Assembly (NCBI GenBank): GCA_963696385.1
Contig: CAVOKF010000002.1
Location: 79,642-143,641 of the forward strand
Length of the DNA: 64,000 bases
Origin: an uncultured delta proteobacterium
GTDB lineage: Bacteria > Myxococcota_A > Polyangia > Polyangiales > Polyangiaceae
Direction: 5' to 3'
The notes beneath the pieces were generated by a model. That model had not been told where the DNA came from and searched no databases. It worked only from the letters and a program-made list of their open reading frames with translations. This document shows, piece after piece, positions 23,896-61,235 of the stretch. Each line of letters begins with the position of its first letter. The stretch's first letter is position 1. Position numbers and translations under genes: made by a program.

Positions 23896-24017
23896 GCGAG
23901 TAGTAAGCCCAAAGTGCGTCGGTCGACGAAGAGCCGCGAAAGAGGGCGCGGAAACATATCGCGTCTTAATCGCGTCTTAGGGGCGTTCGTTATCGCTGAA
24001 TCGGCGAACCGATTTGG
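23896..24017 (+). repeat. ~110-bp GGCGAGTAG dispersed repeat, copy A
   Basis: GCGAGTAGTAAGCCCAAAGTGCGTCGGTCGACGAAGAGCC..GGAAACATATCGCGTCTTA..GGCGAACCGATTT. Confidence 0.9.
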
Positions 24018-24157
24018 TACGTCAATAAGCCGTTTCGCATACACGCCGACTTCGGCGCGTGTACCGTAGAGAATCCCCGATGCCTTTGACTACCCAATTC
24101 GTGCACTATGCACGTAAGTGATCGACATCACTCGAGAAATAAAGAATCCTACCTATG
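24018..24157 (-). mobile_element. Left-end remnant of the IS4 element at 56270
   Basis: Inverted near-copy of 56270-56450 with an internal deletion. Confidence 0.85.
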
Positions 24158-24316
24158 AAGACGCGATATGTTTCCGCGCCCTCTTCCGCGGCTCTTCGTT
24201 GACCGATACCCTTTCGACTGGCTACTCGCCTACGGACCACCGCGCCTCTCGCCGACTCGGCACCGCGGCGGTTTCCCGGTCTCTTCGTCGACCGACGCTT
24301 TGCATTGGCACTCGCC
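24158..24316 (-). repeat. GGCGAG repeat copies E (24158-24230) and H (24262-24316, partial)
   Basis: rc GGCGAGTAGCCAGTCGAAAGGGTATCGGTCAACGAAGAGCC..GGAAACATATCGCGTCTT; H is a divergent partial copy. Confidence 0.85.
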
Positions 24317-24364
24317 GAGCGCGCCGTGCGTAGCACTGACGTGATGGCGGTCACGGGTCGGTCT

Positions 24365-24502
24365 GCACCCCGTGTGTACCCCTGTCAGTGCTTCGCCGAC
24401 ACCCTCACGGGCGGCAGCGCATGACTCGGGGCCGTTGTGGCTCGCTATTCCTCAACGTTGGACTTTTCATTCCTTTCTCCATGTCGGTTTATCCCGGCGC
24501 AC
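24365..24502 (-). ncRNA. Group II intron 5' end fragment
   Basis: rc begins GTGCGCC (GUGYG consensus) ..GAAAAGTCC..TAGCGAGCCACAACGGCCCCGAGTCATGCG..CGTGAGGG..GCGAAGCACTGACAGGGG. Confidence 0.75.
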
Positions 24503-24750
24503 TAACCGTCCGGCCGGGGCCGTACTTGATTTAGGCGCAGAAAGCGCCGTGCGATCGGGCGCATGGGACGCGAGCGTCGGTCGCGAGTCTGGTGGTCAAG
24601 CCGAGTGGCGCGTTGGCGGCGCGGCAATTCGCAGAGAATGAAGGGCTTTCGGTGTTCTCGCTTCGGTGGTGGTCGAGCCAGTTGGCTCGTGATAACCGTG
24701 CGGAGCACGGTACGTCGGCGATCGAGCCGATCGAGATCACCGTCGAGGGG
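24503..24750 (+). mobile_element. IS66 left end plus partial tnpA (inverted copy of ~21460-21718)
   Basis: TAACCGTCCGG..ACTTGATTTAGG..ATGGGACGCGAGCG; cut by repeat B. Confidence 0.85.
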
Positions 24751-24755
24751 CGTTA

Positions 24756-24865
24756 GGCGAGTAGTAAGCCCAAAGTGCGTCGGTCGACGAAGAGCCGCGG
24801 AAGCGGGCGCGGAAAAATATCGCGTCTTAGGGGCTTCCGTTGTCACCGAGCGGCGAAAGATTTGG
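24756..24865 (+). repeat. GGCGAGTAG repeat, copy B
   Basis: Near-identical to copies A, C and D. Confidence 0.9.
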
Positions 24866-25096
24866 CTCATCGAAGTCGTGGACACCTTGCGGGGGGCGCA
24901 GTGCAGCTTTCGGAACTCGCACCCCGCCTCCGGCGAGGGGGGTAACTGCCCACGAACGATCGGAGCCTCCGATGGAAGCCTGGCGGGATGACGCGCCTAA
25001 CGCGCCCGTGCTTGATCTACCGAACGGACCTCACGGGCGAGCGTGTCGGGGCAGCGTCACGGTCGCATGTGCTACGAATAAACGAGATCCCTCGCC

Positions 25097-25735
25097 ATGG
25101 CCCAGCCCCACGACGCGTCCGTTGTGACTCCGGCGGAGTACCTCGCCTTCGAGAGGAACTCGGAGCGTAAACACGAGTACCTCGCTGGACGCATCTTCGC
25201 CATGGCCGGGGCGAGCCCCAAGCACAACCTCGTCTGTGGAAACATCATTCGAGCGCTGGGCGAGCGCCTGCGCGCTCGCCGTTGCGCCGTCCTGCCCAGC
25301 GACCAGCACGTCTACATCGAGGCGACCGGTCTCGGGACGTATCCTGATGTCACGGTTCTGTGCGGCCCTGGTCGGCGCCACGAGGACTTCCCGCAAAGCC
25401 TGGTCAACCCTTTGATTTTGGTCGAGGTGCTCTCTGCCTCAACCGAGGCATACGATCGCGGTGCCAAGTTCGACCACTACCGTCGAATCGAGACGTTGCG
25501 AGAGTATGTCCTCGTCTCGACGGATCGTCTTGCGGTGGATCACTACCTGCGGGAAACGGACGGCACGTGGCGTCTCGCCGTCTCGCGTGGCCTCGACGCG
25601 CAGCTACGCTTGCCGTCTGTCGACGCGACCGTGCCGCTGAGCGAGATCTACGAAAACATCGACCTGGTCGCGCCCGAGGGGATCGAAGAACAGTCCCCGT
25701 ACCCGCCAGAGGTGAAGGTGCCGAAGCGCTCCTGA
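25097..25735 (+). CDS. Uma2 (DUF820) family endonuclease
   Basis: KHEYLAG..AMAGAS..YPDVTVLC..VEVLSASTEAYDRGAKF..LREYVLV motifs. Confidence 0.93.
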   Translation: MAQPHDASVVTPAEYLAFERNSERKHEYLAGRIFAMAGASPKHNLVCGNIIRALGERLRARRCAVLPSDQHVYIEATGLGTYPDVTVLCGPGRRHEDFPQSLVNPLILVEVLSASTEAYDRGAKFDHYRRIETLREYVLVSTDRLAVDHYLRETDGTWRLAVSRGLDAQLRLPSVDATVPLSEIYENIDLVAPEGIEEQSPYPPEVKVPKRS

Positions 25736-26934: not shown

Positions 26935-27046
26935 GGCGAGTAGTAAGCCCAAAGTGCGTCGGTCGACGAAGAGCCGCGGAAGAGGGCGCGGAAACATATC
27001 CCGTCTTAGGGGCGTTCGTTATCGCTGAATCGGCGAACCGATTTGG
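26935..27046 (+). repeat. GGCGAGTAG repeat, copy C
   Basis: Near-identical to copy A. Confidence 0.9.
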
Positions 27047-27399
27047 TTCTCGAGCGCAACCCGCAATCGTCGACCCGAGTGTTCCGGGACGGCGTCCACC
27101 AAATTGAGGATTTCGCAGTCTTTCAATACGTGGAGATCTACAGTCCGCTCGCGGCGAGTAGGCCGTTCAAAGCCTGCCGGTCGACCGAACGAGCCGCGCC
27201 CAAGGCGCTGCCCCAGGCCAACGGAGGGTGATCGTCCGCCATGCTTCGGAGCCTCGATCTGCGTGCCGAATTGGCCGAGCACGCCTGCCTCCCACGCTCA
27301 ACGCCCTTGCCTCACGTCGATGGCCGATGGCTTACGCATCACTGCCCATGAACGCCATCGCCGACGCTACGATCGCCCTGCGATGGGACCGACAAGCGC

Positions 27400-28176
27400 A
27401 TCCGGCGTGCGAAGAAGACGCTCGCATCGAGTGGGCGGCTCTTCGAACTCCACGACGACGCCGAGCTCCAAAAGCGCCTGCCTGCGGTGCAGCGGGCGCT
27501 CTATCTCTTGTTCAACGAGGGATACCACGGCGCTTCGCCCGAGGTGTCCGTGCGCGTCAGCCTGTGCCGCGAGGCGCTGCACCTCGCCCGGATGCTCCTC
27601 GAGCATCCCGTGTGCACCATCCCCAGCACGCGCGCTCTCGTTGCCGTGATGTGCCTGCACGCAGCGCGGATGCCCGCGCGGCTCGACTCCGCAGGCGACC
27701 TCGTCCCCCTCCGGCAACAGGACCGTACCCGCTGGGACACCGCTCTTACAGCCGAGGGGATCACCTTCCTCGACGCATCGGCGACCGGCGCCACCCTCAG
27801 CGAGTATCACATCGAGGCGGCCGTCGCGGCCGTGCATGCGAACGCGAAGACTGCGGACGAGACCGCGTGGGCCGAGGTCGTCGGGCTCTACGACATGCTC
27901 ATGGCGCTGCGTCCATCGCCCGTCGCGCTCAGCCGGGCAATCGCGATTGGGGAGAGAGAGGGGCCCGAGGCAGGCCTGCTCGCCGTGCGTGCCATCGAGC
28001 ACGACGGCCGGCTCACGCGAAACCCCTTTTACGAAGCCGCCCTTGGCGACCTGGAGCTGCGGGCGGGGCGAATGGAAGCGGCGAGGAAGCACCTGAGGGC
28101 TGCGCTCGAGAGGGCGCGAAATCCGATGGAGCGGCGGTTCTTCGAGGGACGGTTGCGCGCGCTCGTCCCGCGTTGA
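27400..28176 (+). pseudogene. C-terminal half of ECF sigma factor (DUF6596/TPR type)
   Basis: LYLLFNEGY, LCREALHL, GDLVPLRQQDRTRWD, YHIEAAVAAVH, PSPVALSRAIA; sigma2 region absent. Confidence 0.85.
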
Positions 28177-28241
28177 CCGACCCGCCTACTTGCGCGGGAC
28201 GACTGCGACCCACGTCGACGCCCGCCTTAGCGGACTCCCCC

Positions 28242-29087
28242 CTATGAGCCGTGAGCGTCGAGCAAGAGCTTCTTGGCCTGATCATCGGGTGTGCCGTCAT
28301 CGCTCATCGTTGGACTGTCCCCTTGGCTCGATGCGCTCTGCGGCAAGGAGGCGGAATCCGGAGGAGCGGTCCCATCCTGCGCGTAATTGTCGTACTTCGT
28401 CACGTCGCCCGTGTCGTCGTCGTCGCCAAACGGGTCGTCGGACAGGTCGCTCCCATCGTCCGCCCCGCTGCTCGGCGGCGCATCCCCACCTTCCGCGCCA
28501 GTTTGCCCGCTGGGATCCGACGGGCCGGCATGCAGCGCCAGGAGCGCGGCCCGCACCGTGTCGACGTCCAGGCCGTCGAGGTCCATGGCCGGGTCCAGAA
28601 AGCCTAGGTTCTGAAGCCGCTGGGCCGCGCCACTCAGGGTCTCGATCGGGTTCAGGTGTCCGACCTTGATACTGAAGGTCGCGCCGTCGCTGGCAAAGAC
28701 GATTGAGACCTTCTGCATGGAGATGGGAATGTCGAACGTGGCGTGGCCGTCCCCGTCCGTGCTCAGTCCCTTCAGGTCGGGGCATTCCGTGACGCTGAAG
28801 CCCTGGGAGGCTCGAGCGGGGTCGGCGAACACCACGACCAAACCGACGTTGGGCACGTCTGACACAAACAGGTTACTTTGCCCCGTCTGGAGCGAGTGAG
28901 GGACCGGGCTCTTGTTCACCTGATCCGGGATGTACAGGACGTCCGTCGGAAGCAGCAGGTTCGGATCGGGCCGCAGCTTCCGCAAGTCGTCGTTGGCCGG
29001 GTCGTTCCAGACGGAGTCCGCGTCGAAGGCGAAACGGTACGCCAGCAGTGGGAGATGATCGCCCTGTTTGACGACGTACGGTTGCAT
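28242..29087 (-). CDS. LysM-like plus peptidoglycan-binding protein (secretion-system associated type)
   Basis: YVVKQGDHL..WNDPAN..PNLLLPTDVLYIP; GAAQRLQNLGF; ends in AHGS. Confidence 0.8.
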   Translation of the reverse strand: MQPYVVKQGDHLPLLAYRFAFDADSVWNDPANDDLRKLRPDPNLLLPTDVLYIPDQVNKSPVPHSLQTGQSNLFVSDVPNVGLVVVFADPARASQGFSVTECPDLKGLSTDGDGHATFDIPISMQKVSIVFASDGATFSIKVGHLNPIETLSGAAQRLQNLGFLDPAMDLDGLDVDTVRAALLALHAGPSDPSGQTGAEGGDAPPSSGADDGSDLSDDPFGDDDDTGDVTKYDNYAQDGTAPPDSASLPQSASSQGDSPTMSDDGTPDDQAKKLLLDAHGS

Positions 29088-29220
29088 GGTGGTCGCGTTT
29101 CCAGAGCGCCGAGCCGTAGCACGGAGGAATGCCGGAGCGGCGGCTGCGTTCTTTCGTGCGCCTCTCGGACAATCTTGATATCGTGGCGAGAGTTACCTTA
29201 CAACGGGCAGATCACGAATC

Positions 29221-30954
29221 TTGGGCAAGGCCTCGGACACCCCGTTAGCCACGGCCGGCAGCGGCCCTTGGCAGGACTATAGCTTCAAGTGCTACGACAA
29301 CATCCTTGACGTAAGCGCGACGTCGACGGACGGCACGACGTACACCTTAACGCTCGGCAAGGTGGACATCGCCACGCTCACCATCACCGATCCGGCGTCG
29401 CTCAAGCTTTTTCGCAGCTGGGACCCCGACGACGACGTCCCCAGCGAGAGTCTTATCGTCAGTGGCGTGGGCTCGGCGAAGTTCAATCAGCCGGACCTGA
29501 GCGCCGTCCGGATGGCCACACCGGGGAGCAGCGGCAACGTGACGCTGAACTTCGGAGCGGCCCAATCTCTGTCCTACGGCCCGCTCGACATTCCGCGGAC
29601 CCAGACCATCAGCAACACTCTGCGCGCCGACAAGCTGGCCATCTGCAACGCGAAGACGCTCGCCGACCTCGCCAAGGCCGCGCCGGCCACGTCGGACTTC
29701 AACCTCGCGGCGAGCGCGCCGGAGGAGGTTCACCTCTGCGACGCGGCCACCGCCAACGGTTTCGAGCAAGGTGTCGTCGACCTGAACGCAGCGATCGACT
29801 CCGGCGACTTCGTCAAGGCATGGGCGAGCGCCAGGATGCTGGGCCTGCCTCTGCCGGAGGACGACGCGAAGTACGTCGATTTCGATTCGTTCTCCGACGA
29901 CGAGTGGCACCTGGCCTACGCGGTTGGCGGCGCGGCGTGCAATCAGAAGAAGGACGGGTCGTTCGGCTCGCGCTGGGACGCGAAGAAAAAGTCGATGATC
30001 GGTCTGCAGGGAACGGGGAACTACCTCGACCTGATCAACGACATGGCCGAGTGCGGCGTGGATCCTCTCGCGTCGCCGCCGCTCTCGCTCGATACGATTT
30101 TCAATTACTACAAGAACGTCCAGCTCGAGCACTCGCACGAGAAAGTCAACGCGCTCTACGCGAAGCTCCTCGCAGCGTGCCAGCGGGTCATGAGCGGGCT
30201 TCAAGTGCACTACCGCAATGCCGGGAACACGAAGACGCCGAGCTGGGAGAGGCAGGACCAATCGGTCGTCGTGCTCTACGTCGGAGGCGTGCTCGTCGAG
30301 GTCGGCGGCAAGGCGACGGTATTTCCTTCGGTGCAAGCGGCGAGCGACTTCGTGCCTCCCGGGGGCGCATCGGTCTCCGTCGCGCCGGGCCGCAAGGCCA
30401 CCAAGAAAGGGCCGTCAAAGTTTCCAGTGGTCTTCAAGGGCCTCAACGCGCCGGTGGGATTCAGCGCGTCGGTATCGCGTGCCGTGTACGGACGGCGTTA
30501 CGAATCGAGCTGCGAAGGGATGGCGTCGTTTCGACTGCGGACGCTCCCCCAGTACTTCTCGCCGGTTGGGGTCGTCTGCGCGACGCTCAAGACGGGCGGC
30601 ATCGGGCACTGCATCGCGGTCTTCTCGGGACCGGGCAGCCTCTATTTGTCGTCAAACGGCAAGGAGCCCATTGCGGTGACCAAGGGACTCGTTCAGAGCG
30701 CCACCGAGGCGGAGCTCGTCGCCATCTACAGCCATGGAAACCCGGCTTCGACCCTGTCGGCAAGCGACTTCGATTATGGCTTCGGTGTCACGCCTAAGCC
30801 GCAGGGCGAAACCCCGGCGCAGCGCGAGTCCATCATCGATCAGGTCATGCTCGACGCGAAGGTCGACGAGGCCTTGCACCGCAACAGCCGAACGGTACCT
30901 GGGCGCAGGCGCGCCCCGCTCGACTGGAACAACTTTCTTCCCAGCTGGGCGTAG
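29221..30954 (+). CDS. Hypothetical protein with possible C-terminal transglutaminase/papain-like domain
   Basis: 577 aa with coding-like composition; SSCEGMA..GHCIAVF..LSSN motif order; start uncertain. Confidence 0.6.
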   Translation: MGKASDTPLATAGSGPWQDYSFKCYDNILDVSATSTDGTTYTLTLGKVDIATLTITDPASLKLFRSWDPDDDVPSESLIVSGVGSAKFNQPDLSAVRMATPGSSGNVTLNFGAAQSLSYGPLDIPRTQTISNTLRADKLAICNAKTLADLAKAAPATSDFNLAASAPEEVHLCDAATANGFEQGVVDLNAAIDSGDFVKAWASARMLGLPLPEDDAKYVDFDSFSDDEWHLAYAVGGAACNQKKDGSFGSRWDAKKKSMIGLQGTGNYLDLINDMAECGVDPLASPPLSLDTIFNYYKNVQLEHSHEKVNALYAKLLAACQRVMSGLQVHYRNAGNTKTPSWERQDQSVVVLYVGGVLVEVGGKATVFPSVQAASDFVPPGGASVSVAPGRKATKKGPSKFPVVFKGLNAPVGFSASVSRAVYGRRYESSCEGMASFRLRTLPQYFSPVGVVCATLKTGGIGHCIAVFSGPGSLYLSSNGKEPIAVTKGLVQSATEAELVAIYSHGNPASTLSASDFDYGFGVTPKPQGETPAQRESIIDQVMLDAKVDEALHRNSRTVPGRRRAPLDWNNFLPSWA

Positions 30955-35764: not shown

Positions 35765-37498
35765 CTAGGCGGCGGCACGCGTATCGTCGCCGCCGCTCGG
35801 CGAGGCGCCGCGCCGTGCGAGGGTGGCCTTGTAGTTCCAGGGGAGCCAGTCGCCGGGAGCCTCGGCGACGGCCTTGCAATGGCGTTGCAGCGCGGTGAGG
35901 TAATCGAAGGGATTTTGGTGGTGCAGCTCGGCGGTGTGAATGAGGGTCATATAGATGTCGCCGACGCGCGCACCGAGCTCGCTTCTGTAAAAGAACGACA
36001 CGTTTCTCAACCGAATCGCCATCTTGAGGACACGCTCGCACAGGTTATTGTCGAGCGGCGCTCCCGGAACACGGAGAAAAACCGTGAATTTGTCCCACCG
36101 TTTGAGGAAATAGTGGAAGGCCTGCCCGAGGTCGGAGTGGGGCTCGATGCGCTTTTCGTCGAGCTGAGCGGTCATCCACTTCTGCAGATCCCCCATGACG
36201 GGCGCGCTGAGTCGCTGGTGCACCCGTAATCGCTCGTCGTCCGAGAGGCCTTGCTTTTTGCAGTCGTTGTCGACCTTGTAAACCGCCGCGAGCCGCTCGA
36301 GAAGCGCGAGGCACTCGTCGGGGTAGTTGGCGACCTCGTCGACGACCTTGCGTCGCCCGTGGGAGATGCAATTGATCTCGATGACGTCATGGCCGTCGGG
36401 GACGTTGCGCGAAAGGGCGTCACTCATGAGCAGAGGGACAGGCCGGTCTGGGGCTCGTTGTTTCAGCAGCTCGGCGAGGTTTTCTCCCGCATGCTTTCGC
36501 CCCGTGAAAAATAGCGCGATGACGCCGAGTGACGCGATGATCGAGACGATGGCGGTCGTGAACAAGCCTGTGCGCTCGGGGGCCTCGAGTGTTCCTTTCG
36601 CGAGCAAGTCGGCGCGGCGCTTGCCCATGAGGCTCAAGATGCGCATGTGGCTATCGTCGACGTGCAAGAGCTCGGCCTGGGCGGCGATGCGCTTGAGCTC
36701 CTTGTAGACCGGCTCGACCCGATCGACGCGATCGCGCAGGACATCCCACTGGGTCGACGCAGGGACGGGCGTACCGAGATTGTCCTGCAGCTTCTCGAGT
36801 CGATGGAAGGGAACGCCCGCGCCGTAGTGCATCACGGCGATCATGCTGCTGGCGGACTCGTCGCACTTTTCTCCCTGGGCCTCGGGCGGCGGACGAGCGG
36901 TGAACACGTGGCCGCAGGCGCCGCAGCGAAGCTGCTTGCAGTGAAAGCAGGCGGCCCCCAGCGGAGCCCGCCCGACGATCCGAACGAGGGTCGCGGGGGC
37001 GGCCAGCTCGTAGACACGGCCTTGTGTGCAGAGCGGGCACGAGTCTCCCCGCCGCAGCGACTCGTGATCCACGGTGACGTGCTGCGCCGCGCGATAGGCG
37101 GAGGCGGGCACGCGTCCGTGACCCTTGCGCTTTTCTTTCGTGGGGGGCGCCGATGGCTCCGGCGCACTCTCCGCGGCCGCGGGGGTGGCGCTGGGATCGC
37201 TCGCGGGCGCGTCTTGCGGCTCGACCGCCGGATGGGCCGTCTGCGACGCAGGGTTGGCCACGTCGGCCTTGATGTGAGCGGTCTTCTCATTGCCCGTGAG
37301 TCCGAAGAGGCGCCGCACCCGCGTCAGCGTGGCGTGGGTCTTGCGTAGCTCGCGGGTCGTCTCGATCACGGTCGTCGCAAGCGCTTCGATGAGGTGGTAG
37401 TCGTCGTCACAGACGACCGCCCGGATGCGCTCCAGCATCGGCGGCAGGTCGTTCAGATCGACGTCACGGACGGGCGTGCGATCCACGTCAGTACCCAC
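35765..37498 (-). CDS. tnpC: IS66 family transposase TnpC
   Basis: Zn ribbon CPLC..CGACG, LHVDDS, HAGENL, CISHGRRK, PLDNNLCERVLK, NPFDYLTAL..WLPWNY. Confidence 0.92.
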   Translation of the reverse strand: MGTDVDRTPVRDVDLNDLPPMLERIRAVVCDDDYHLIEALATTVIETTRELRKTHATLTRVRRLFGLTGNEKTAHIKADVANPASQTAHPAVEPQDAPASDPSATPAAAESAPEPSAPPTKEKRKGHGRVPASAYRAAQHVTVDHESLRRGDSCPLCTQGRVYELAAPATLVRIVGRAPLGAACFHCKQLRCGACGHVFTARPPPEAQGEKCDESASSMIAVMHYGAGVPFHRLEKLQDNLGTPVPASTQWDVLRDRVDRVEPVYKELKRIAAQAELLHVDDSHMRILSLMGKRRADLLAKGTLEAPERTGLFTTAIVSIIASLGVIALFFTGRKHAGENLAELLKQRAPDRPVPLLMSDALSRNVPDGHDVIEINCISHGRRKVVDEVANYPDECLALLERLAAVYKVDNDCKKQGLSDDERLRVHQRLSAPVMGDLQKWMTAQLDEKRIEPHSDLGQAFHYFLKRWDKFTVFLRVPGAPLDNNLCERVLKMAIRLRNVSFFYRSELGARVGDIYMTLIHTAELHHQNPFDYLTALQRHCKAVAEAPGDWLPWNYKATLARRGASPSGGDDTRAAA

Positions 37499-38363
37499 CG
37501 AGCAGGCGTTTTCGGAAGTCGCCGACCAGCGGATATCCGAACAGCTGTTTGAGGGAACGATTGGGAATCGAGCCGCGAGCGTCCTTGCCGAGGCCGGCGG
37601 TCATCCCGAGAACCGTCCAGTTGGCGGCGCGGTAACACGTGCCGCGAGAACAAGTCGGATCGACAAATGTCTCCGTAAAGTAGATCGGATGCCGGTAGAC
37701 CCGCTGCCAGTCGTCCGAAAGCCGGCGCGAAATGGCGCCGAGCAGATGCGACGCCAGATGCGGCACCTTCACCCACGGCAAAATCAGAAACCGGCTCTGG
37801 TAGGCGACAAACCGAATATGGGCCCTTCGCTGCTCCTTGGACCAGCCGATGTAGCGATCCCGAGGCCCCAGATGCCGCGCGGCCGACGACCAGCAGAAAC
37901 ACGCGATCGGCTGTCCGGCCGCCGATACCAGGTACTTGAGGTGCTCGCCGACCGGATGCGTGTACCCCAGATAGTGATGCTGCTGGACCATCGACTTGAC
38001 CAGCGACTCCTCGGGCGTGCGTCGAACCTGCCGAATGTCCAGGGGAGCGAGCTCCGCGAGCGGAACCGCCAGCGGGCGCGCCGGGACATCCACATGATCC
38101 ACGACCGCGTGCCGACGTGGCTGCTGACTCCGCCATCGCGCCGGCGGCAGCTCCACGTGGCCTTCCCGGTGCAATCGCAGCATCAGCCCGCGACAGACCG
38201 CATCGCACAACGTCCCGTTGGGTTGCGCCCAACCCCACGCCTCACAAACCTTGAACGACAACGCTCGGCGACTGGTCCCCGGACTCGCGGCGATCAGCTC
38301 TCGCAGAAACGCCACGTCGCCGGCGCGCACCTCGCGTCCTCGATATCGAAGCAATGCCTCCAT
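37488..38363 (-). CDS. DUF4338 (DruA-like) domain protein, IS66-associated
   Basis: QHHYLGY..GEHLKYL, RDRYIGWS, RFLILPWV..LASHLLG, ETFVD..GTCYRAANW. Confidence 0.9.
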   Translation of the reverse strand: MEALLRYRGREVRAGDVAFLRELIAASPGTSRRALSFKVCEAWGWAQPNGTLCDAVCRGLMLRLHREGHVELPPARWRSQQPRRHAVVDHVDVPARPLAVPLAELAPLDIRQVRRTPEESLVKSMVQQHHYLGYTHPVGEHLKYLVSAAGQPIACFCWSSAARHLGPRDRYIGWSKEQRRAHIRFVAYQSRFLILPWVKVPHLASHLLGAISRRLSDDWQRVYRHPIYFTETFVDPTCSRGTCYRAANWTVLGMTAGLGKDARGSIPNRSLKQLFGYPLVGDFRKRLLGGY

Positions 38364-39599: not shown

Positions 39600-39806
39600 G
39601 TCGCCGCTTTTAGAGAGCAGATCGCGTGCCGAAGCGTTGTCGCTGCGGCTCCGTCCAAGTGGACGATTGAGCAATTGCGCCGATACGCGCCTCGACGCTA
39701 ATCGCACGCGTCACGGGCGCCGTCGCACAATCGCCTATTATTTATGTTACTGCGGCGGTTTTCCCGGTCTCTTCGTCGGCCGATGCGCTTTGAAGCCGCT
39801 ATTCGC
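39600..39806 (-). repeat. Divergent GGCGAG-type end (copy I) with long extension also present at 51981-52083 and 58899-58996
   Basis: rc GCGAATAG..CGACGAAGAGACC..GTAACATAAATAATAGGCGATTGTGCGAC..GTATCGGCGCAATTGCTCAAT..GGACGGAG. Confidence 0.75.
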
Positions 39807-47171: not shown

Positions 47172-47282
47172 GGCGAGTAGTAAGCCCAAAGTGCGTCGGT
47201 CGACGAAGAGCCCGCGGAGGCGGGCGCGGAAACATATCGCGTCTTAGGGGCTTCCGTTGTCACCGAGCCGCGAACCCGATTT
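47172..47282 (+). repeat. GGCGAGTAG repeat, copy D
   Basis: Near-identical to copy B. Confidence 0.9.
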
Positions 47283-47791
47283 GAGAGCCGACCCCCCTCC
47301 CGGCCGGGCTTCCGACACCGAAACGGCAGACATCCGCGAAGTGGAACATGGCGTCGAGAGGGATCGACTGCGGCGGTGGCCGCGTCACCCTCGAACGTGG
47401 CCAGGTCACCCGACGCGGGTTGTTTTTCCCGTGAAATCCAGTCGCATGAGCATGGCACGAAAATGGGCGTGTTCGAGCGTCCGTGGCTGCTCTCGCACCC
47501 GCGTACGTTCCCCGTCGCCCGACCGAAACGGTCTTGTACAGGTTGGTGCGCGAGAATCTGGAATCGTTTCTCGCACACGCGCGCGAGCACTACGAGGGAG
47601 GCCTGCCCCATTACGTGGAAGCGGAACTGCGTGCTTATTTGGATTGTGGAGTGTTTGCTTGCGGATTCACACGTTGCCACTGCGACTCATGCGGCCACGA
47701 CTTGCTTGTGGCTTTTTCCTGTAAAGGCAGATCTCTCTGCCCCAGTTGCTGCGGCAGGCGTATGAAGAACGCTTCATGGTGCGTCACCTCG

Positions 47792-49870
47792 CTATGTCCT
47801 TGGAATGACGAGAGGGAGTTGGCCGGCGGTTGGTCCTGCACCCGCCCGATCGCGTCTGGCTCGCACGCGCGTCGTGACTCGCTTGGCGACCTCGTTCTCG
47901 AGATCGCTCCTTGCGAAGATCCAAGGGCCGTTTGCGAGGGGGTGGCATGCGGGCACCTCGTTGGCCTGAGCGGCACGGCGCAGCGTTCTGGTGGATACGT
48001 CCATCAGCCCGGCCGCCTCCTCGAGGGATAACCAGCCGTCGGCGCGACGACGCTCGATCGAGTGCGCGGGGATCCCTCTTGTATGGCGAAGCGAAGCAAC
48101 CAATGCACGCGTGTAGTTTGCACCGTTCGGCGTTCGGATCCCGGCCTTGCCGAGCCACGCAGCGATTTCGTGATCGGGAAAGATTCGCGCGAGGACGCGC
48201 ACGGCTTCGACGACATCCGACGATGTCGTTCGGCCACGCTCCCCGCTGCGGCGCTTCGGAACTAGCAAATCCGTATGCGCGCCTCCCTTCCAGTGCACGG
48301 TGAGCACGATTTCGGAGCGCGCTTCATCGACGTCTGCCCAGATTTGTTCAATGACGGCACGTACGATGCGCTTCTTGAGTGCCATATCGGTTGTGGCCGC
48401 GTTCCAGACGAGTTCGAGATCGCTCGCCAGCTCCGTGAAGTGATCGACGCTGGGCGGATCCACACGACGGTTTATTTCGCGTGCTGCATCGATCCGAGTT
48501 TCAATCAAGCGCTCGAGTTCGAGAGCGGCATTCCAGCGCTTTTCGAGTTCACGAGCGACTGTGCGGTTCTCGGGATCGACAGCATCGAATTGACGCTCGG
48601 CGCGGCGCGTTTGGTATTGCGCCTGCTCCAACTCGAGCTCGAGTGCTTCAATTGCTTGGTCGCGTGCACCAGCGAACTCTACCCACGCGCGCTGCGCCGC
48701 CTCGATCGCGGCCGGTCGCGTTATCGCGAGCACTCGCTTTGCGATCTGCACGTCCACATCAATTGCGCTGAACGATATGCACTTCGGATCGCCAAACTTG
48801 GCGTTCCGCCCGTCGCAGGTGTAGCGACGCACGCTCTGGGACGTCCCGCTGTAGTTGACGCCAAGACGGTGACCGCAACGCCGGCAGGACACGAGCCCCG
48901 TGAGCAGCGTCGAGCCGCGGCGCGCGGCCCCGTGTCCTCCTCGACCCTGTGTGTTTTTCGCTAGCATCTGCTCGATCCGTTCGAACTGCTGCCAACTGAT
49001 GTACCCCTCGTGATGGTCGCGCAGCAAGACCGACCAGTCGGCCCGGTGCTGCCTGACCACCTCGGAACGCAACTGACCCTCGACCACGCGCTGGCGCTGG
49101 ACTGTTCGCCCATACGCATATGCGCCCGCGTAGACAGGATTCGTCAATATCCGATATACGTCATCGTAATTTGGTTCTTTCCATACGACTTGTCGGCGAG
49201 AGCGGTTGGCCGGGAGCTTCATGCCCGCGCCGCGCATCCAAAGCATCACCTGTCGTGCGCTGCCCAGTTCGAAAAATTTGGCAAACACCAAGTCGATGAC
49301 CTGTCCGACGCGGGCGTCGGGACTCTTTTCGATGCCCCCATCGTCCCCCTAGCGGTAACCGACCGCCACTCTCGCGAACAGTTCTCCGCGAGCCGCTTTC
49401 TCGCGGCGAGCTTCTGCGCCGCGCAAGCGCAAGAGCTCGAGCTCATATTCATTCAGACTTCCTTTGAGTCCGAGCAATAGTCGATCATTGCTGAGTCGTG
49501 GGGCGTAGACGCTGTCGTGATCGACGAGGAGCGTATCTACGACGCGGCAAATCTCGATCAGCTGTTGCCAGTCCCGACTGTTGCGCGCGAAACGGGATAC
49601 CTCGCGTGCCGCGACAGCACCCACCTGACCCAGCGACACGTCCGTCACCAGCCGGCGAAAGCCTCCACGCTCAACGGAGCCGGCTGCCGACTTGCCGAGG
49701 TCCTCGTCGATCACATCGATGTCTCGCCAGCCCAGCGCGCGCAGGCGATCGCGCATTGCGTACTGCAATCGCCGACTCTCCTCATTGTGCGCGAGCTGCT
49801 GCTGCGTCGACTGCCGGACGTACAGGACCGCACGCCGCGCAAGGTGTCGTGCACTGATCTTCTCACTCAT
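47792..49870 (-). pseudogene. Large serine recombinase (~690 aa), in-frame TAG at 49349-49351
   Basis: AVLYVRQST, EVSRFARN, LTNPVYAGAY, HEGYISW, LLTGLVSCRRCG; the two ORFs are in the same frame. Confidence 0.9.
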
Positions 49871-50316
49871 CGTCCTGCTCGCTTGCTGTCGCGTCTACGA
49901 GCACGTGGACATGCTCCTTGAGCATCTGCGCGAGAATGAGCACGAGCTCCTCGCGGCATCGGTCGGGCATCCCTTCCCACACGGGAAGGCGAGGGTGCTG
50001 GTACACAAGACTGATCTGGATGGGTCGGTTGCGAGGGCTTGGTTTCATGGACGGCCGTCTCGCGCGATCCGAGTGCGGCGTCCACCGCTCCACTGTCGAT
50101 CAGAAGTTGCCGAAGCTGCCTGAGAGCCTCCAGCGACACGCACGGCTCCGCGGCGATCCTCGTTGCGGCGCAAGCAACTTCGTCCAGCATCCACGCCGGC
50201 ATCGAGATAGTCCTCGCGCCCACGCCCGAAGTTGGCGCGCAGCGAACTATGCCGTGTGCGCACCGAGCGCGTATGACGACCTGGCATCCTTGCAGCGGAT
50301 GCCACGCATATCGCAC
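49863..50316 (-). CDS. Two small accessory ORFs of the serine-recombinase element
   Basis: YAWHPLQG..MPAWMLD ORF and MKPSPR..WEGMPDRCREELVLILAQML ORF, the latter overlapping the recombinase start. Confidence 0.6.
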
Positions 50317-51855
50317 GACGCGGACCGTAGTTCCGAGCGCATCATCCGGTGTAGTTGATGGCCAACACGGCTGCCCACTTGGTCGATCGAGTCTTGCCCG
50401 ACGTCCCTGTGCGGCAATACGTTCTGTCGCTCCCGTACGAGCTTCGCAAGCTTGCGGCGTTCAAGGCCGACGTTCTCACAGCCCTGGGCCGCATCTTCGT
50501 CGAGGCCATCTTTGCCCGCTACCGCGCTCGCGCCCAGCGCGAGGGCCTCGAGGATGCGCAGTGCGGAGCGGTAACCTTTGTTCAACGCTTCGGCAGTTTG
50601 AATCTCAATGTGCATTTTCACGTGTTGGTGCTCGATGGCGTCGTGACTCGGGACCCGGACCGTCGTGTGCTCTTTCATCCGGCGGCCGCTCCGACGCCGG
50701 TCGAGCTCGAGGCGTTGGTCGAGCGCGTGATGAACCGTAGCGTGGCGTGGCTGCGCCGCCACTGCCATGTGCAGGACACGCGCTCGAAGACCGCTCGAAC
50801 GAGCCGCCGGCGCAGACCGCCCTCGACGCCTGCGCGGACATCGCCATGGGCCGCGGCACAGTCGCAACCTTGTCGAACGACGACGACGGGTCGAAGGACG
50901 ACGACCGGGAGGCGCGGCCCGACGGGCTCGTCGGCGCGGTCGAGCGAGACGGGTTCAATATACATGCCGGCGTCCGGATCGAAGCGGGCGACCATCTGGG
51001 TCGCGAACGACTGGCGCGCTACGGCGCGCGACCTCCGCTCTCGCTTGAGCGACTTCGTAGGTTGCCCGGCGGGCGGGTGGCCTATCGACTCAAGTACGTC
51101 CGTCGCGGCCGAGGCAAGTACAGAATCATGACTGGCCTGGAGTTCATGGCCCGCTTGAGCGCGATCATTGCGCCGCCTCGGTATCCGTTGGTGCGCTACA
51201 GCGGAGTGCTCGGGCCACACTCGAGCTGGCGACGCGACGTGGTGCCGAAGCCGCGCGAGACGGCTCCCGCCTGCCACCGCGCGCCCACTTCACCGCCGGT
51301 GTCGAGCGCGGCCAAGCCGGTCACCGATCCGATGGCGGGTCCCGGCCCCGCGCGTCCGGGTGCAGCGGCGCCGACAGCGGGCAAAGTCGAGAGTGCTCCG
51401 GCGCCGGCCGCCAGTTCCTCGACGAAGACGGGTCTGTCCGCGCTCCCCATCTTCGCGCATCGGGGCGAGGTCATCCCGCTCACGCCGAATGTGCTTGCTG
51501 TCAGCCACTGGGAACGGCTGCTCGGCGGCGCCATCTACGCGGCCTCGCCGCGCGTGGACTGGCCCACGCTCTTGAAACGAACGTTTGACGTGGACGTTCT
51601 GCAATGTCCGAAGTGCCACGGCCGACTGCGGGTGCTCGCCGTGATCACCGAGCGCGAGCCGGTGCGCCAGGTCCTCGCCCATCTCGGCCTGCCGACCGAG
51701 GCGCCGCCCGTCGCCCGGGCGCGCGACCCGACTGACGACGCGCAAGACGCCGAGCCGTCGGATCAACTCGAGCTGCAGCTCGCGTGAACGACCGGCCCCG
51801 AGAGCGGCGCACCGATGCGGCGCCGCGCGGGCGACGTGCGCTTTGGATTTGTTCG

Positions 51856-51965
51856 AAATCGGTTCGCCGCTCGGTGACAACGGAAGCCCCTAAGATGCGA
51901 TATGTGACCGCGGCGGTTTCCGGCGGCTCTTCGTTGACCGATACCCTTTCGACTGGCTACTCGCC
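51856..51965 (-). repeat. GGCGAGTAG repeat, copy F
   Basis: rc GGCGAGTAGCCAGTCG..GTCACATATCGCATCTTAGGGGCTTCCGTTGTCACCGAGCGGCGAACCGATTT. Confidence 0.9.
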
Positions 51966-52170
51966 CGGTCCGGCGCACCGGCTCCGTCCAAGTGGACGAT
52001 TGAGCAACTGCGCCGATACGCCTCGACGCTCATCGCACGCGTCACGGGCGCAGTCGCACAATCGCCTATTATTTATGTTTCCGTTGCACGCCAACGCACC
52101 GGTGCCCCCGGTCTACTTGGCGTGCGGCTTCCGCCCGGCACCGGACATGTTCCGGCGAGACCGCAGCGGC

Positions 52171-52653
52171 TCAGTTGCACACTCCCGTGCACATATTACA
52201 AAGCAATGAAGGATTGAGCGACGCGCCAATCGAGCAGGAAGAGCCATCCGCAAGAGAACAGTTGAGCGACGCGTTCTCGGCAGCCTCCCGGGAAATGCAA
52301 TAATACGGCGGTGGAAGTCCGATGCATTCGGACTGCGCGTCCGAGTACTCCGTCCCCTTAGGGCAGTCTCCGCCGTCGCTCGGGACACTCCAATATATGC
52401 AGGGCAGCAGATGGAAACATATCTGCGCCGCCTCGCACATCGCATCTCCGCAAGTGAACTGCCCTGCATTGCCCCCGTCGAGCACATCCGCCGCAACATC
52501 CGCGGATAGGCTCGCATCGATCTGCGCGTCGCCAGCGTCCTGCGCGTCGCCAGCGTCCGCGTGATCCGTGGAATCCGTGGCCCTGATGGACCCGCCGCAG
52601 GCAGTCGACAGGACCATCGTGAAGCAAACAAGGTGGCGCCCAAACCTCGGCAT
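52171..52653 (-). CDS. Small Cys-rich lipoprotein
   Basis: LSTAC lipobox, DAG repeats, Cys-rich C-terminal domain. Confidence 0.75.
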   Translation of the reverse strand: MPRFGRHLVCFTMVLSTACGGSIRATDSTDHADAGDAQDAGDAQIDASLSADVAADVLDGGNAGQFTCGDAMCEAAQICFHLLPCIYWSVPSDGGDCPKGTEYSDAQSECIGLPPPYYCISREAAENASLNCSLADGSSCSIGASLNPSLLCNMCTGVCN

Positions 52654-53019
52654 GGACGTACTGTACCACGCCGATTGCGCCTGTTTTGACCCGGCTCGGG
52701 GCGTCGGTCAAACGCGGCCTGGCCGCCCCACTCCGTGTTTTCCACGTTGTCGCCGACCGCGACTGCGAACGGCGGTTCGTGCGCGCCCTCCCGTCGTCTA
52801 CCCCTGTCTCGACCCGAATGTCACTTCCTGCGCGGCGGCTCTTGCTCCAGCCGTGCCCGCTCGCAGCGTCGAAACGCCCGGCCTCGGCGAGGGCGCCCGC
52901 CCGAAAAGGCCCATGCACTCGGTGACCTACAATCCGCCCTCGCTTTCCACTTGATGTTGCGCACGATCTTGATACGACGTGACGTGGGGGGGAGCGGCAG
53001 AGGGAATCTCTCTGTCTAG

Positions 53020-56269: not shown

Positions 56270-57745
56270 CATAGGTAGGATCTTTATTTCCCGAGTGATC
56301 TCGATCACTGACGTGCATAGTGCACGAATTGGATAGTCAAAGGCATCGGGGATTCTCTAGACGCTGTTGTGAGACAACGCGAAAGGAGACCCCCGATGCA
56401 CGGATCAAACAGTACACGCGCCGGAGTCGGCGTGTATGCGAAACGGCTTACGGAAGTACTCGGCGAGGAGCAGGTGACCGCGATCGCGAGACGTAGCGGC
56501 TGGCTACGGCGCGTGCGCAAGGTGATGCCGCTGGCGATGGTCGTGGCGGTGCTGTCGACGCTCGGGTCGGGCCACGCCAAGTGGTTGGCCGATATTCTGC
56601 GGACGTTCCGGAAATTCGCGGGCCTTTCGCTGCGATATAAGCCCTTTCACAACCGGCTCGCGCAAGCGTCCTTTCCAGAGATGTTTCGGATGCTGCTGGA
56701 AGCGACGGTACAGAAGATGAGCCAGCCGGTTCTGCACGCCGTGTCCCCCAAACTGTCGACCTTTCGGGACATCGTCATTCACGACGGGACGTCGTTCGCG
56801 CTCAAGGACGACTTGAAAGGCACATGGCCGGGCCGCTTTACAAAAATCTCGCCGGCCGCCGTGGAACTGCACGTCACGATGAGTCTGCTCCAAGACGATG
56901 TGCGCATCGTCGCCCTGACGGCCGACAAGGAGACCGAGCGAACCTACCGTCCCGAGGCCGCGAGTCTTCGCGAGCGGCTCTTTCTGGCCGACCGAGGGTA
57001 CGAGGAGCGAACATTCTTTTTCGACGTCGACCAAGCGGGCGGCGCCTTCATCGTCCGCGGAACCAAAAACATTCGACCCACCATTCGGGCCGCTTTCGAC
57101 AGCGCCGGCAAATCCATCCCCAAGTTGCTCGGCCAGAAGTTGAACTGGGACCTGCTTCCGGCCCAGACGGTCGATCTCGACATCGAATGGCAGGCGAATT
57201 CATTCGTGTATCGCGGGCGAATTGTGGCGATCTACAAGCGCGGCAAGCGCAACGCGAAGACGTTCGTGTACCTGCACAGCAACCTCGCTCGCAAGCGCTT
57301 CTCCGCCGCCGACGTGGCCGGCTTGTATCGCCTCCGCTGGCAGGTGGAACTCCTGTTCAAAGAGTTCAAATCCCACGCCAACCTTCATGCCTTCGATACG
57401 GGCAAGGCCGCTATCGCGAAAGCGATGATATGGGCGAGCTTGCTCGCAGCCCTTCTGAAACGCTCGCTCGCACACTTCGCGGAAGCGTCGCTGGGGGTGG
57501 AGCTTTCGACCCAGCGAGCCGCCGCGTCCGGCAAGCATTACTTCGACGATGTCCTCCGCGGCCTTCTCGACTCGCCGCGCCAACTACGTCGTGCCCTCGC
57601 CGAAACGCTCAAGTTCCTCGATTCCAACGCGCGCCGCGCTCATCCTGCTCGCGATCGAAAGCGCGGACGTCTCGCTATGGGCCTCGAGCCACTCGCACTT
57701 GTGTGGTAGCGAGCGCCATCCCGAATCCCTAAGTACCAACTTATG
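56270..57745 (+). mobile_element. IS4-family element, intact transposase (~56396-57709), with IRs and TSD
   Basis: DGTSF, LADRGY, YRLRWQVELLFKEFKS (YREK); IRs CATAGGTAGGATCTT / AAGTACCAACTTATG; flanking GGGGCGGGCT duplicated. Confidence 0.93.
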
Positions 57746-57755
57746 TGGGGCGGGC

Positions 57756-57882: not shown

Positions 57883-57960
57883 TCGCGCAGCTTCGCTCGG
57901 CTCGATCCGTTTGACCCCGTCCGTCGTCGGCCGCACGCTGCTCTGTGATGGGGCTCCGTC

Positions 57961-58842: not shown

Positions 58843-59184
58843 GATTCACTTCGGCCGCAACGGCCATGAGCGGGCATTCGCTGAATCGGTTCGCCGCTCG
58901 TATCGGCGCAGTTGCTCAATGGTCCGCTCGGACGGAGGCGCAGCGACAACGCTTCGGCGTGCGATCTGCTCTTTACAAAGCGGGACATTGGCTCGGTGTC
59001 GACGCGACAAGTCGTTCCGCGCTGCCCGGAGCGACGGTCGCCTTGGCTTTCTGGTGGATGGTCCGGAGTCGGAATCGAGAGTCCAACGACTGGCAAATCA
59101 CGCACGCGAAAACGGGTACCACTGCGCCCTTGCGCCCGGCGCCACATGGGGTTGGAATGGGAACAGCCCTGGAGAAGAAGGCGC

Positions 59185-59650
59185 ATGAAGACCCCCGGCC
59201 GCCCGGCGAGCGGGCAAGTGAAGTGGCTTCGCAACGTCAAGACGGGTGCGTTTTGCTGGCATGCCCGCTTCACGTTGAACGGGAGGCGGACGAAGTTTGC
59301 GCCGCTCGACCGGCGAATCGCCGAGAACGACGTGGAGGGCGCGCGCGAATGCGCACGGCTCGCGTACGACTTCCTTCGGCACGGCGGCGCCGTCTCGGAC
59401 GTCGCCCGGGAGACTGTGGGGGAGTACGCCCACCGGTGGATTCGGTCCCGCAAGGCCAACGCACGGTCCGTGGGCGACAACGAGAGTCACTTGATTCACC
59501 ACGTGCTGCCGCTCATCGGCTCGCTGGACATGCTGGCCATTACGTCGGCGAACGGCGACACGATCGTCGCGAGGCTCGACGCGAAGATCGAGGCCGGCGA
59601 AATCAGCGACAAGACCGCGCGAAACATCTGGGGGACCGCCAAGAAGATGT
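59185..59650 (+). pseudogene. Tyrosine integrase N-terminal fragment (catalytic domain missing)
   Basis: ETVGEYAHRWI..HVLPLIG..ISDKTARNIWG core-binding-like region, followed by the att core. Confidence 0.7.
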
Positions 59651-59691
59651 TAACTAAAGACCGTAAGTTGTCGAAATTATTAACGAATGTT

Positions 59692-59712
59692 GTGGAGCTG
59701 ACGGGAATCGAA
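59692..59712 (-). other. att core: tRNA-Ala-like 3' end fragment
   Basis: Identical to 12352-12372. Confidence 0.75.
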
Positions 59713-60315
59713 CTCGACCATGGGCTTTCCGGGAAAACCGAGCGACTTCGCGAACTTGGCCACTAACAGGATGAAAACACTCCGGAATGCTCGTGCCCTC
59801 TAGATCCCTTCAGTTCCCTCTCGTTCGCTCTCGGGCTGCAGAGTTGGAGCAACATAGGAGCAACGATCCTGAGATCAGGTCCAGACATGAACGCGAGGCC
59901 GGACGTACGAGTGAGCTGACTCGATTAGAGGTCGGCGACCGCGAACATAGCTCAGCCGTAGAGGGACCGCGCGGAACCGGCCTCCGTAGCTCGCGCCGGT
60001 CCGGGTCCGTGGGGTGAAAGGCCGGGAAGGTCACGCGACGACACTGGCGGGGCGGAAATGCGGCGGGAACGAGGGCAAACGCATTCTCGGGCCTTGGCCG
60101 CGGCGTCGACACGCACGGCGCCGGCGCCGCTCGCATTCCGCGGCGTCCTCTGGTCGCCTACCCGTGGTCGCCTACCCGCCGCCGCGAGCTCTGGCTTGGC
60201 GTGTAGTGCAGCGCGGTGGTACACGATGTTGACGTTTTCGTATAGAAGCGCGCTCTATCGGTTCGTGCGTGGGTGGTCGTTTTAAAGGTTCGAGGTCTAA
60301 GGTCCAGGTGCAGCC

Positions 60316-60543
60316 ATGCTTCGTATATCGGATCTATCCGCGATGACGCCCGAAGCGCGATCGGAAGCGCTTCGGAAGCTTACGTCAGTTTCAAACGGCG
60401 CGAGAGTCGATGCGCAGATCCGTGCGTTCGAGCAGCAATACGAGATGACCTCGGACGAGATGCGTGCACGCGTCAGTCGTGGCGAACTGGACACTGCCGA
60501 CACGGCTCGGTGGCTCGTTTTGCTCCGAGCTTGTGGGCGCTAA
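60316..60543 (+). CDS. TumA-like antitoxin
   Basis: QIRAFEQQYEMTSDEM..GELD..RW motif; overlaps the downstream gene. Confidence 0.6.
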   Translation: MLRISDLSAMTPEARSEALRKLTSVSNGARVDAQIRAFEQQYEMTSDEMRARVSRGELDTADTARWLVLLRACGR

Positions 60544-61024
60544 GCACGCGCCGATCGAGCTCGGCAAGTATCTAGAGATTCACGAGACGGCCATGCGCTC
60601 CCTCGAGCGCGACAAATCTTATGTGCTTCCCGGCGGAGACGGTCTCGGAATCGAGCGTGTCGATACAACATTGCTTATTGCCGGCCGCATTCAGTGCAGC
60701 GGCGGAATCCTAATCGATGTAAGAAAGGTTCTCGCGATTCTCGAGGGCGAAGGCGACACCGCCATCGTTCAGACCGTCTCGTATACCTACCACGCACTAG
60801 CGGAAGATATCGGCAGCGTATTGCGATACTGCAGCCCGCACACGGATCACAATTTCTTTCATCACAAGCACACGTTTGATGCATTGAACGGCGACGTTCA
60901 TGGCCACGTCACCGAAATTGAGACAGATAAGTGGCCTACGCTTTCCGAAGTAATTTGCGAAATATGCAAATGGTACTATGATAACGCTACCGCGATCGAG
61001 GCAATGCGCGCCAGTTCCAAATAA
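60533..61024 (+). CDS. TumE/DUF6516-like toxin
   Basis: SYTYHA..LRYCSPH..HHKH..PTLSEVI motifs; probable GTG start at 60533. Confidence 0.6.
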   Translation: MGAKHAPIELGKYLEIHETAMRSLERDKSYVLPGGDGLGIERVDTTLLIAGRIQCSGGILIDVRKVLAILEGEGDTAIVQTVSYTYHALAEDIGSVLRYCSPHTDHNFFHHKHTFDALNGDVHGHVTEIETDKWPTLSEVICEICKWYYDNATAIEAMRASSK

Positions 61025-61129
61025 GGGCCTTGCCTCACTCGTCCGCTTGCATCGCAGCGAGCCATCCCTCTCTCGTTGATTCCGTGCCCCGCGATCTTCG
61101 TGATGCTTAATTGGACGGCACTTTCAGTG

Positions 61130-61235
61130 GCAACGGACGCTCATAAGACGCGATATGTTTCCGGGGTGGCTTCCCGCAGCTCTTCGTCGACCGACGTGCT
61201 TTCGGTTTACTACTCGCCTTTGGGCTTACTACTCG
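61130..61235 (-). repeat. GGCGAGTAG repeat copy G plus a stub of a second end (61219-61235)
   Basis: rc CGAGTAGTAAGCCCAAA followed by GGCGAGTAGTAAACCGAAAGCACGTCGGTCGACGAAGAG..GGAAACATATCGCGTCTTA. Confidence 0.85.

Follow-up and report, generated by a model that had tools for sequence, protein, structure and literature searches.

Origin-end modules of an ISCR-like rolling-circle element probably underlie a dispersed repeat and its segment arrays in a myxobacterial genome

The 64,000-nucleotide stretch of DNA analyzed here, called the window, comes from an uncultured delta proteobacterium of the Polyangiaceae (GenBank assembly GCA_963696385.1, contig CAVOKF010000002.1, positions 79,642 to 143,641) and contains scattered copies of a repeat of about 110 bp that has a dif-like site inside it. 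Sequence comparison indicates that this repeat is probably the oriIS (origin) terminus of an ISCR-like rolling-circle element, with a conserved stop about 110 bases in marking where its inner side is cut off, and that the element builds arrays in which such modules alternate with segments of other DNA. The anatomy of the module, its linkage to a transposase gene, the rules at its junctions, and the order of the arrays can be read directly from the genomes that we compared. In what follows, G000 is the genome under study, other G-numbers are other genomes, and L-numbers are transposase or dif loci.

A profile built from the repeat's own copies, used for the genome-wide search that the first-pass annotation of the window had proposed as a check, finds 103 matches in the 6.9-Mb genome (E up to 0.01) and 0 in the reversed genome. 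The copies are concentrated in genome islands rich in insertion sequences (ISs), and both ends of the module are kept in 42 of the 103; the window holds nine module copies and three stubs. Read on the strand opposite to that of the first-pass annotation, the unit is Y^CAAAT...TACTCGC^Y (Y, pyrimidine), about 110 bp long. The sharp GCGAGTAG terminus with unrelated flanks described in that annotation is borne out: in the transposase sense, a pyrimidine follows the TACTCGC end in 62 of 66 distinct right junctions, and the sequence beyond is close to random. The other, inner end is equally sharp: of 59 distinct left junctions, 56 have a pyrimidine just ahead of CAA(A/T)T, with nearly random flanks beyond, and thus the module has two defined ends. 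End logos and flanks display neither terminal inverted repeats nor a target duplication at the module, and Rfam and tRNA scans place no family on the repeat. Just before the inner boundary lies a conserved box, GCGCTTTGGA.NTG.T, present in eight genome copies and behind most related transposases. In the window this box, a proposed internal terminator or binding site, occupies 51835-51855 (+ strand).

According to the first-pass annotation, no cognate transposase lies in the window. This is contradicted by an IS91/ISCR-type transposase gene (PF04986) that spans 47464-51787, split by a 2.6-kb insertion and frameshifted. The upstream region and 5' part of the gene (47366-47764, + strand; codons 1 to about 105, including the Zn-finger region, in a frame starting near 47464) are 88.8% identical to the intact G000 copy on contig C4 (C4:36400-38133). 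The 3' part (50358-51787, + strand; frameshift near 50780) is 95.5% identical to that copy and carries the HxH motif and the single catalytic Tyr, with the Pfam IS91-type transposase domain, PF04986, scoring over its cut-off at 50747-51787. The unrelated insertion between the two parts (47765-50357, - strand) has resolvase and large serine recombinase frames (Pfam Resolvase and Recombinase). In three of four public soil or peat sequencing runs, contigs join 47761 to 50358, skipping 2596 bases. Among the matches listed, loose contig ends with differing flanks fall at 51964 (three of the four runs) and at 47172-47173 (two runs). As a separate observation, the resolvase/serine recombinase element (47765-50357) sits at an ATG inside the transposase gene, and its inner 1.8-kb part is found again at C7:1399585-1401399, flanked by fragments of a further transposase copy.

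The transposase gene in the window ends 68 bp before the module copy at 51856-51964 (+ strand), in which the inner boundary, the dif-like core (51883-51910), and the oriIS end, TACTCGC at 51964, are all present. Across the genome, all four PF04986 loci run into a module about 70 bp past the stop codon and in the same orientation, and likeness among the four loci stops at TACTCGC. The gene linked to full-length copies, whose identity the first-pass annotation had left to be established, is an HUH transposase at each of the four. Eight genome copies retain the transposase-side junction, with several unit types attached, and the same transposase-module layout is found in G025. The transposase is 34-37% identical to those of ISCR1, ISCR2, and a third plasmid element, and a motif alignment shows H190, H192, and Y326 (the HxH and single Tyr) to be invariant with ISCR1 and ISCR2. 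The TACTCGC end agrees with the end of a plasmid ISCR-type element at 14 of 22 positions in the common type and at 18 of 22 in one subtype. The available portions of PMC13181058, PMC6218425, and PMC13393415 locate the oriIS of IS91 and ISCR elements on the downstream side of the gene. Given that location and the end alignment, the sharp terminus corresponds to the origin end. Resemblance to the IS91 terIS (terminator) tetranucleotide CTCG had suggested GCGAGTAG as a terminator end; position, end alignment, and the direction of capture rule this out. Homologs of the transposase occur in at least 158 of 401 genomes of the order. Judged by sequence, the transposase forms a related but separate clade, ISCR-like by its motifs and ends, not by curated cut-offs.

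The same box and boundary (TTGGA...G.T^CA), together with an ori-like end, lie behind most related transposases, and in two genomes they head sizable arrays. Specifically, G134, from another genus, has a 100-bp module (at least 41 matches) that is arrayed downstream of each of three transposase genes, and G375, from a third genus, has a 172-bp module in an array of 12. In these two genomes, 46 of 51 downstream modules point in the direction of the gene (p=2e-9), and 0 modules are present in the about 17 kb read upstream of the transposase genes. Their junctions carry a pyrimidine before CA in 47 of 47 cases and after the ori end in 37 of 42. In two of four arrays, modules differ more from the first one the farther they lie from it (rho 0.76 and 0.87). 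Array segments measure 0.3-12 kb, are often cut within reading frames, and contain genes in both directions; most G375 segments have no close match in that genome. One head-to-tail module dimer in G134 is compatible with a circle junction. Solo modules starting at the same boundary are found in G008, G066, and G085, and searches for the G008, G066, and G375 modules in nine other genomes returned none, with sequences that may be too distant. At metagenome loci with more than 2.5 kb downstream, part of the downstream stretch recurs in 9 of 16, in eight of them in the same direction. We note that several segments of G134 arrays A-C contain RHS-repeat fragments and that one 409-aa frame is present in three segments.

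Comparison of flanks reveals how modules and segments meet in G000. An uninterrupted paralog exists elsewhere for 12 of the 61 flanks on the left and 24 of the 69 on the right. None of the 36 informative flanks indicates simple insertion: the two flanks of a unit, or of a unit pair, never join up, and the missing flank halves are not found at other unit junctions in the genome. Thus, modules sit at seams between unrelated pieces of DNA, as the first-pass annotation had supposed in describing transposon-end modules at the seams of cargo DNA; of the target duplications and empty sites that it proposed to look for, neither was found. Among direct-repeat segments, 3 of 22 recur elsewhere with a unit only downstream and 0 with a unit only upstream, as copying that begins at TACTCGC and runs through leftward would predict. 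All three are copies of DNA that lies to the left of a donor module, newly joined to an ori end. The downstream unit keeps donor sequence across the whole core in the 797-bp event, is of donor-like type in the 201-bp event, and is cut by IS4 in the 820-bp event; the upstream unit is of another, unrelated type in all three. The combination of a donor-type downstream unit and an unlike upstream unit places the new joint at the ori end, not at the dif-like core. A fourth such joint occurs in G134, where the start of one segment coincides exactly with a copy of a chromosomal locus free of modules. The close relative G003, which alone among 30 same-genus genomes matches the unit clearly, is 100% identical to the window over 27038-30000 and 51856-52910. 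In G003 the unit at the first stretch is of another type, and at the second the module and its right flank are unchanged but the left flank differs. Elsewhere in G000, a 30-bp hairpin piece lies between two inner module ends (C4:1140164-1140194); its sequence also occurs, unchanged, within a gene at C4:1093134 and C6:54278.

From these arrangements we infer nicking, circles, and the order of growth. The notion is that the HUH transposase would nick at TACTCGC and copy leftward. Copying would usually stop at the inner boundary, yielding a solo module, and occasional read-through would yield a module together with neighboring DNA. Products would be joined at pyrimidine steps, often where a module already in place is nicked at its ori end, and module-segment-module arrays would grow, probably from the transposase side. 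The arrays in G000 would later have been scrambled by inversions and by insertion of IS4, IS110, a group II intron, and other elements into modules. The dif imitation would be an accessory: most likely, it would let host XerCD resolve dimers or cointegrates between like modules, or else excise cassettes. Resolution between like modules would leave no sequence trace. We speculate further that the system could be an integron-like collecting platform, in which the HUH transposase copies its origin module with each capture and adds segments in order behind its own gene, while a host-matched dif lets XerCD excise or resolve cassettes. This larger proposal is possible, if on balance doubtful.

The site inside the module is dif-like, as the first-pass annotation had perceived: the TAA-6 bp-(A/T)TATGT core is where it was described, resembles the host dif, and is conserved behind distant transposases. 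The longer motif given there, GCCCCTAA-GACGCG-ATATGTTTCC, is intact in the copy at 47173-47283; all other window copies carry variants of it. Of 61 related genomes, 32 contain the pattern TAA-N6-TTATGTNAA, most of them a single time (reversed control, 4). Its sole match in G000, C3:50569-50596 (AAGGCCCCTAA GGAACA TTATGTGAACT), lies near a change in GC skew, has flanks common to 10 of 14 same-genus loci, and is the putative host dif. XerC- and XerD-like genes, scoring just below their cut-offs, are present in the genome (C3:320 kb and 186 kb). Most unit cores agree with the arms of the host dif at 14-18 of 22 positions, and agreement at 16 or more positions is reached by 32 unit sites versus 9 other sites in the genome. 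A dif profile (p up to 0.005 versus shuffles) detects a site behind 22 of the 42 related transposases (identically oriented in 21) and behind 13 of the 38 more distant metagenome homologs that were complete enough to test (79 loci in all). Among homologs, the best module site is up to 20/22 identical to the dif of its host. No dif-like site was detected in ISCR1, ISCR2, or two other plasmid elements. The profile comprises 39 sites, two of them from G010 and G027 (marked unpublished), which also enter the genus-type average and lie outside the 12-genome test described below; it omits seven pattern matches that are multi-copy or not dif-like, and the scan missed two sites with 7-bp spacers (L054 and L055).

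The XerC-side arm, which the accessible text of PMC3025954 describes as the variable arm of dif, follows the host. Its mean agreement is 8.35 of 11 with its own host and 6.73 with permuted hosts (p=0.0002, 12 genomes, a value that overstates significance because kin are non-independent); the XerD-side arm and the spacer show no difference between own and permuted hosts. All 7 sites of this genus have the genus-type arm, all 15 others have the other type, and the two arm types are mixed within transposase clades in a quick tree. Conservation and host tracking suggest that the dif imitation has a role and is under host-specific selection. Two further observations concern this site. Six loci in which it is lacking (L050, L062, L121, L128, L129, and L135) carry an inverted repeat, TGTCAC...GTGACA, at the corresponding position of the module, and at L269 (the G015 dif flank) an ori-like GCCTACTCGCTC, which may be there by chance, lies 7 bases after the host dif.

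Given such a site, host XerCD could be the principal actor. By this account, modules are portable dif sites at which XerCD integrates, excises, and shuffles cassettes, as with pdif modules or integrative mobile elements exploiting Xer (IMEX), and the transposase only seeds sites. The close match of the module core to a single-copy, syntenic host dif, the XerC- and XerD-like genes, the recurrence of the site behind homologs, and the 5 of 23 mosaic modules whose breakpoint is confined to the core all favor it. However, the remaining 18 mosaics break elsewhere or at unplaceable positions, and a linkage scan along the module finds no drop at the core. The new joints of the three traceable events lie at the ori end with donor sequence kept downstream, modules repeat in L270, L287, and L316 with no dif-like site detected, and the host dif has no module next to it in G000, nor in the surrounding 18 kb in G134. 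Half-modules broken in the core are explained by insertions, both of an IS4-family element, 15 of whose 31 ends in the genome fall in a module core, and of an integrase-plus-IS91 element. Indeed, G134 half-modules broken at the dif arm, considered as Xer hybrids, are really insertions of the latter, 2.5-kb element and of another IS. The shuffling by Xer envisaged in the first-pass annotation is not what the traceable events and the site-free modules display, and we regard an arrangement driven by XerCD as unlikely.

A different argument makes the module an ordinary non-autonomous miniature that inserts singly, its flanks scrambled by RecA recombination and neighboring ISs, its arrays the result of local hopping, and its dif likeness a relic. 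Identical G003 modules with four different flank pairs and the clustering of copies in IS-rich islands would fit, as would the judgment, in the available part of PMC3189936, that IS801 fragments are mainly recombination substrates. Simple miniature insertion was nonetheless rejected, as neither an empty site nor a split pair exists among the informative flanks; the shared direction and one-sided position of modules in G134 and G375 likewise oppose it, and host tracking by the XerC-side arm argues for selection. We consider this account quite improbable. Still less credible is the identification drawn from the first-pass annotation, in which the repeats terminate a DDE transposon of the Tn4430/Tn3 type and enclose a site for a tyrosine recombinase. 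A recombinase-type site does lie just inside a sharp end, but terminal inverted repeats and target duplications are absent and the linked gene specifies an HUH transposase in all four loci, which instead marks a rolling-circle ISCR/IS91-type end; this identification can practically be set aside.

Several points weigh against the preferred reading, namely, that an ISCR-like element builds arrays from its origin end. The whole case is comparative: no transposition, nicking, or circle was observed. The divergence gradient is weak in one array (rho 0.40, p=0.06), reversed in the smallest (rho -0.95, n=4), and absent from G000, where the direction bias is also weak (17 of 24 downstream units agree with the gene, p=0.06) and 39 of 66 neighboring modules are direct. 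On the upstream side of the transposase gene no terIS was found; the similarity of the copies to one another dwindles about 100 bp ahead of the gene, and no sharp end is common to them. No strict target tetranucleotide was found, only the pyrimidine on each side being conserved. The module folds no better than shuffles (z -1.0 to 0.3), which leaves a whole-module hairpin unsupported. The transposase scores below the NCBIfam cut-offs (96.8 versus 125 bits for IS91; 285.6 versus 925 for ISCR clade Ia), and G003 is rich in modules, yet its 330 contigs contain no assembled PF04986 match. Finally, the three capture events could also be the product of a module inserted in a duplicated stretch, followed by deletion.

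How does the system compare with known ones? Like IS91/ISCR elements (ISCR1, ISCR2/ISVsa3, IS91, IS801, and IS1294), it has an HUH transposase with HxH and a single Tyr, an ori end downstream of the gene with similar last 22 bases, neither inverted repeats nor target duplication, and DNA captured on the inner side of ori. Unlike them, it has an inner boundary that is conserved at 100-170 bases from the ori end and yields fixed-length solo modules (103 here), arrays that appear to grow downstream of the ori end, and a junction preference seen only as Y^Y, no fixed tetranucleotide having been found; a dif-like site inside the module sets it apart from ISCR1, ISCR2, and two other plasmid elements. 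The likeness to integrons is one of layout: an enzyme gene heads an array of repeats, mostly of one direction in G134 and G375 and weakly so in G000, with 0.3-12 kb of cargo between them, the repeats are targeted by IS110 elements and group II introns, and, in two of four arrays, distal repeats are more diverged. In contrast to integrons, the head gene encodes an HUH transposase, there is no integron integrase, the repeats, with folding z-scores of -1.4 to 0.3, lack attC-like hairpins, and cassettes often begin or end inside reading frames and carry genes in both directions. The pdif modules of Acinetobacter and IMEX such as the CTX phage and TLC carry a 28-bp imitation of the host dif, and IMEX phages have an adjacent rolling-circle origin. 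Here, too, a 28-bp (11-6-11) imitation lies beside a rolling-circle origin, but the sites are located inside a transposon end and mostly in direct rather than alternating inverted order, the seams fall at HUH ends rather than at the dif core, and no copy lies at the chromosomal dif. Unlike Tn3/Tn4430, the system has no terminal inverted repeats or 5-bp duplication, and the linked gene is HUH, not DDE TnpA.

The nearest precedents are fragments of IS801. Ori-end fragments stopping at internal sites are described in the available portion of PMC3189936, and one-ended deletions in that of PMC6354349. The IS801 miniatures (229, 360, and 679 nt; PMC3189936, as far as its accessible text goes) resemble the present modules in being transposase-less ori-end pieces with an internal stop that are moved in trans. 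The same text has them arise afresh at several internal tetranucleotides, remain rare in genomes, and insert singly. By contrast, a single boundary is conserved here across transposases of 40-60% identity, and the copies are numerous, lie at seams of unrelated DNA, and form ordered arrays. As assessed from its sequences by the tests that define each class, the system is a variant of IS91/ISCR one-ended transposition and not an integron, a pdif system, or a Tn3 element. In searches of open-access publications, we found none on fixed-length ori modules in ordered arrays and none on a dif site in an ISCR end or on a link between HUH transposition and dimer resolution.

Within the window, all nine copies in the first-pass annotation were recovered, and its stubs near 21860 and 61219 are both real. 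Full solo modules lie at 24757-24864 (- strand), with the ori end abutting a cut IS66 fragment, and at 26936-27045 (- strand; dif-like core 26989-27016), where G003 has the same inner junction and another module type beyond 8 bases. A full inverted module (47173-47283, - strand; dif-like core 47227-47254) stands directly upstream of the transposase gene. The full module at 61109-61217 (+ strand; dif-like core 61136-61163) has the same flanks in G003, and its ori end runs into a stub that is the last 18 bases of another module (61218-61235). The full module at 23896-24016 (- strand) contains an 11-bp duplication in its core, likely an IS4-family insertion footprint; its ori end abuts a cut istB frame and its inner end lies inside an IS4 terminus. 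Nearby are a right half whose core is cut by an IS4-family end at 24157 (24158-24229, + strand) and a right-half remnant (24262-24315, + strand). A 45-bp ori-end remnant at 27154-27198 (- strand) was absent from the first-pass list. At 39741-39806 (+ strand), a right half follows an alternative left arm (39646-39740), and its ori end abuts a 74-bp inner piece of the transposase gene. Last, the left arm at 21851-21896 (- strand) meets, in its core, the end (21831-21850) of a different element bearing an integrase and an IS91-type transposase. We also observed a second left-arm family (GATTGAGCAA...CGCCTATTA) that meets the same right arms at the core (39646-39748, 51979-52079, and 58896-58994).

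Modules are themselves targets of other elements. The IS4-family element (56270-57745 in the window, and genome-wide) has ends CATAGGTAGGAT / CATAAGTTGGTAC, and six modules carry an 11-13 bp duplication in the core as its footprint; one insertion outside modules (C7:1416005-1417480) hits another dif-like stretch. The 2.5-kb element encoding a tyrosine integrase and an IS91-type transposase (for example, G134 C3:5977242-5979757) targets CATAAG in the dif-like core, at least eight times in G134. An IS110-family element occupies one spot of the module left arm (G000 C4:1017824-1019603 and four more copies), and group II introns lie in right and left arms (G000 C6:22245, C7:1370060, C7:1356928, and others). 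A repeated flank beginning GTCGAGTAG, considered as a second IS91 end, is actually the end of a group II intron region. The window also contains group II intron domain fragments (1-216 and 24359-24466), an IS66 transposase preceded by a frame scoring as DruA (35765-38363), and a reading frame of 1165 aa (1686-5183) that matches nothing in Pfam and contains an internal repeat of about 291 bp.

The surroundings of the transposase gene hint at conjugation in G000. A ribbon-helix-helix (RHH) gene precedes the transposase in three G000 loci and three loci of relatives, not in the other loci read, and a VirD4-like frame stands before the RHH gene at C4. We considered the transposase as a conjugative relaxase; with the RHH/VirD4 context missing from the other loci read, such a function is unlikely to be general. 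A type IV secretion gene cluster, the VirD4-like frame, and the RHH gene lie ahead of the transposase at G000 C4:21000-36300, with a further instance at C6:131225-131650. With this cluster upstream, the array in G000 may correspond to the cargo region of a conjugative element.

ISCR elements are held responsible for the capture of resistance genes, yet the available portion of a 2018 paper states that no ISCR had been shown to transpose (PMC6218425). The myxobacterial elements constitute an ordered record of many capture events with exact junctions. Thus, a substrate of 100-110 bp suffices to test both nick sites, the signal for stopping, and the order in which segments are added. If arrays grow as proposed, they would provide a second, integrase-free route to integron-like stockpiles of genes. 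A dif imitation that follows the host XerC arm would, in turn, tie HUH transposition to chromosome dimer resolution. Such an imitation of the host's own chromosome-resolution site is carried by many modules, and same-direction arrays of modules exist in several soil myxobacteria.

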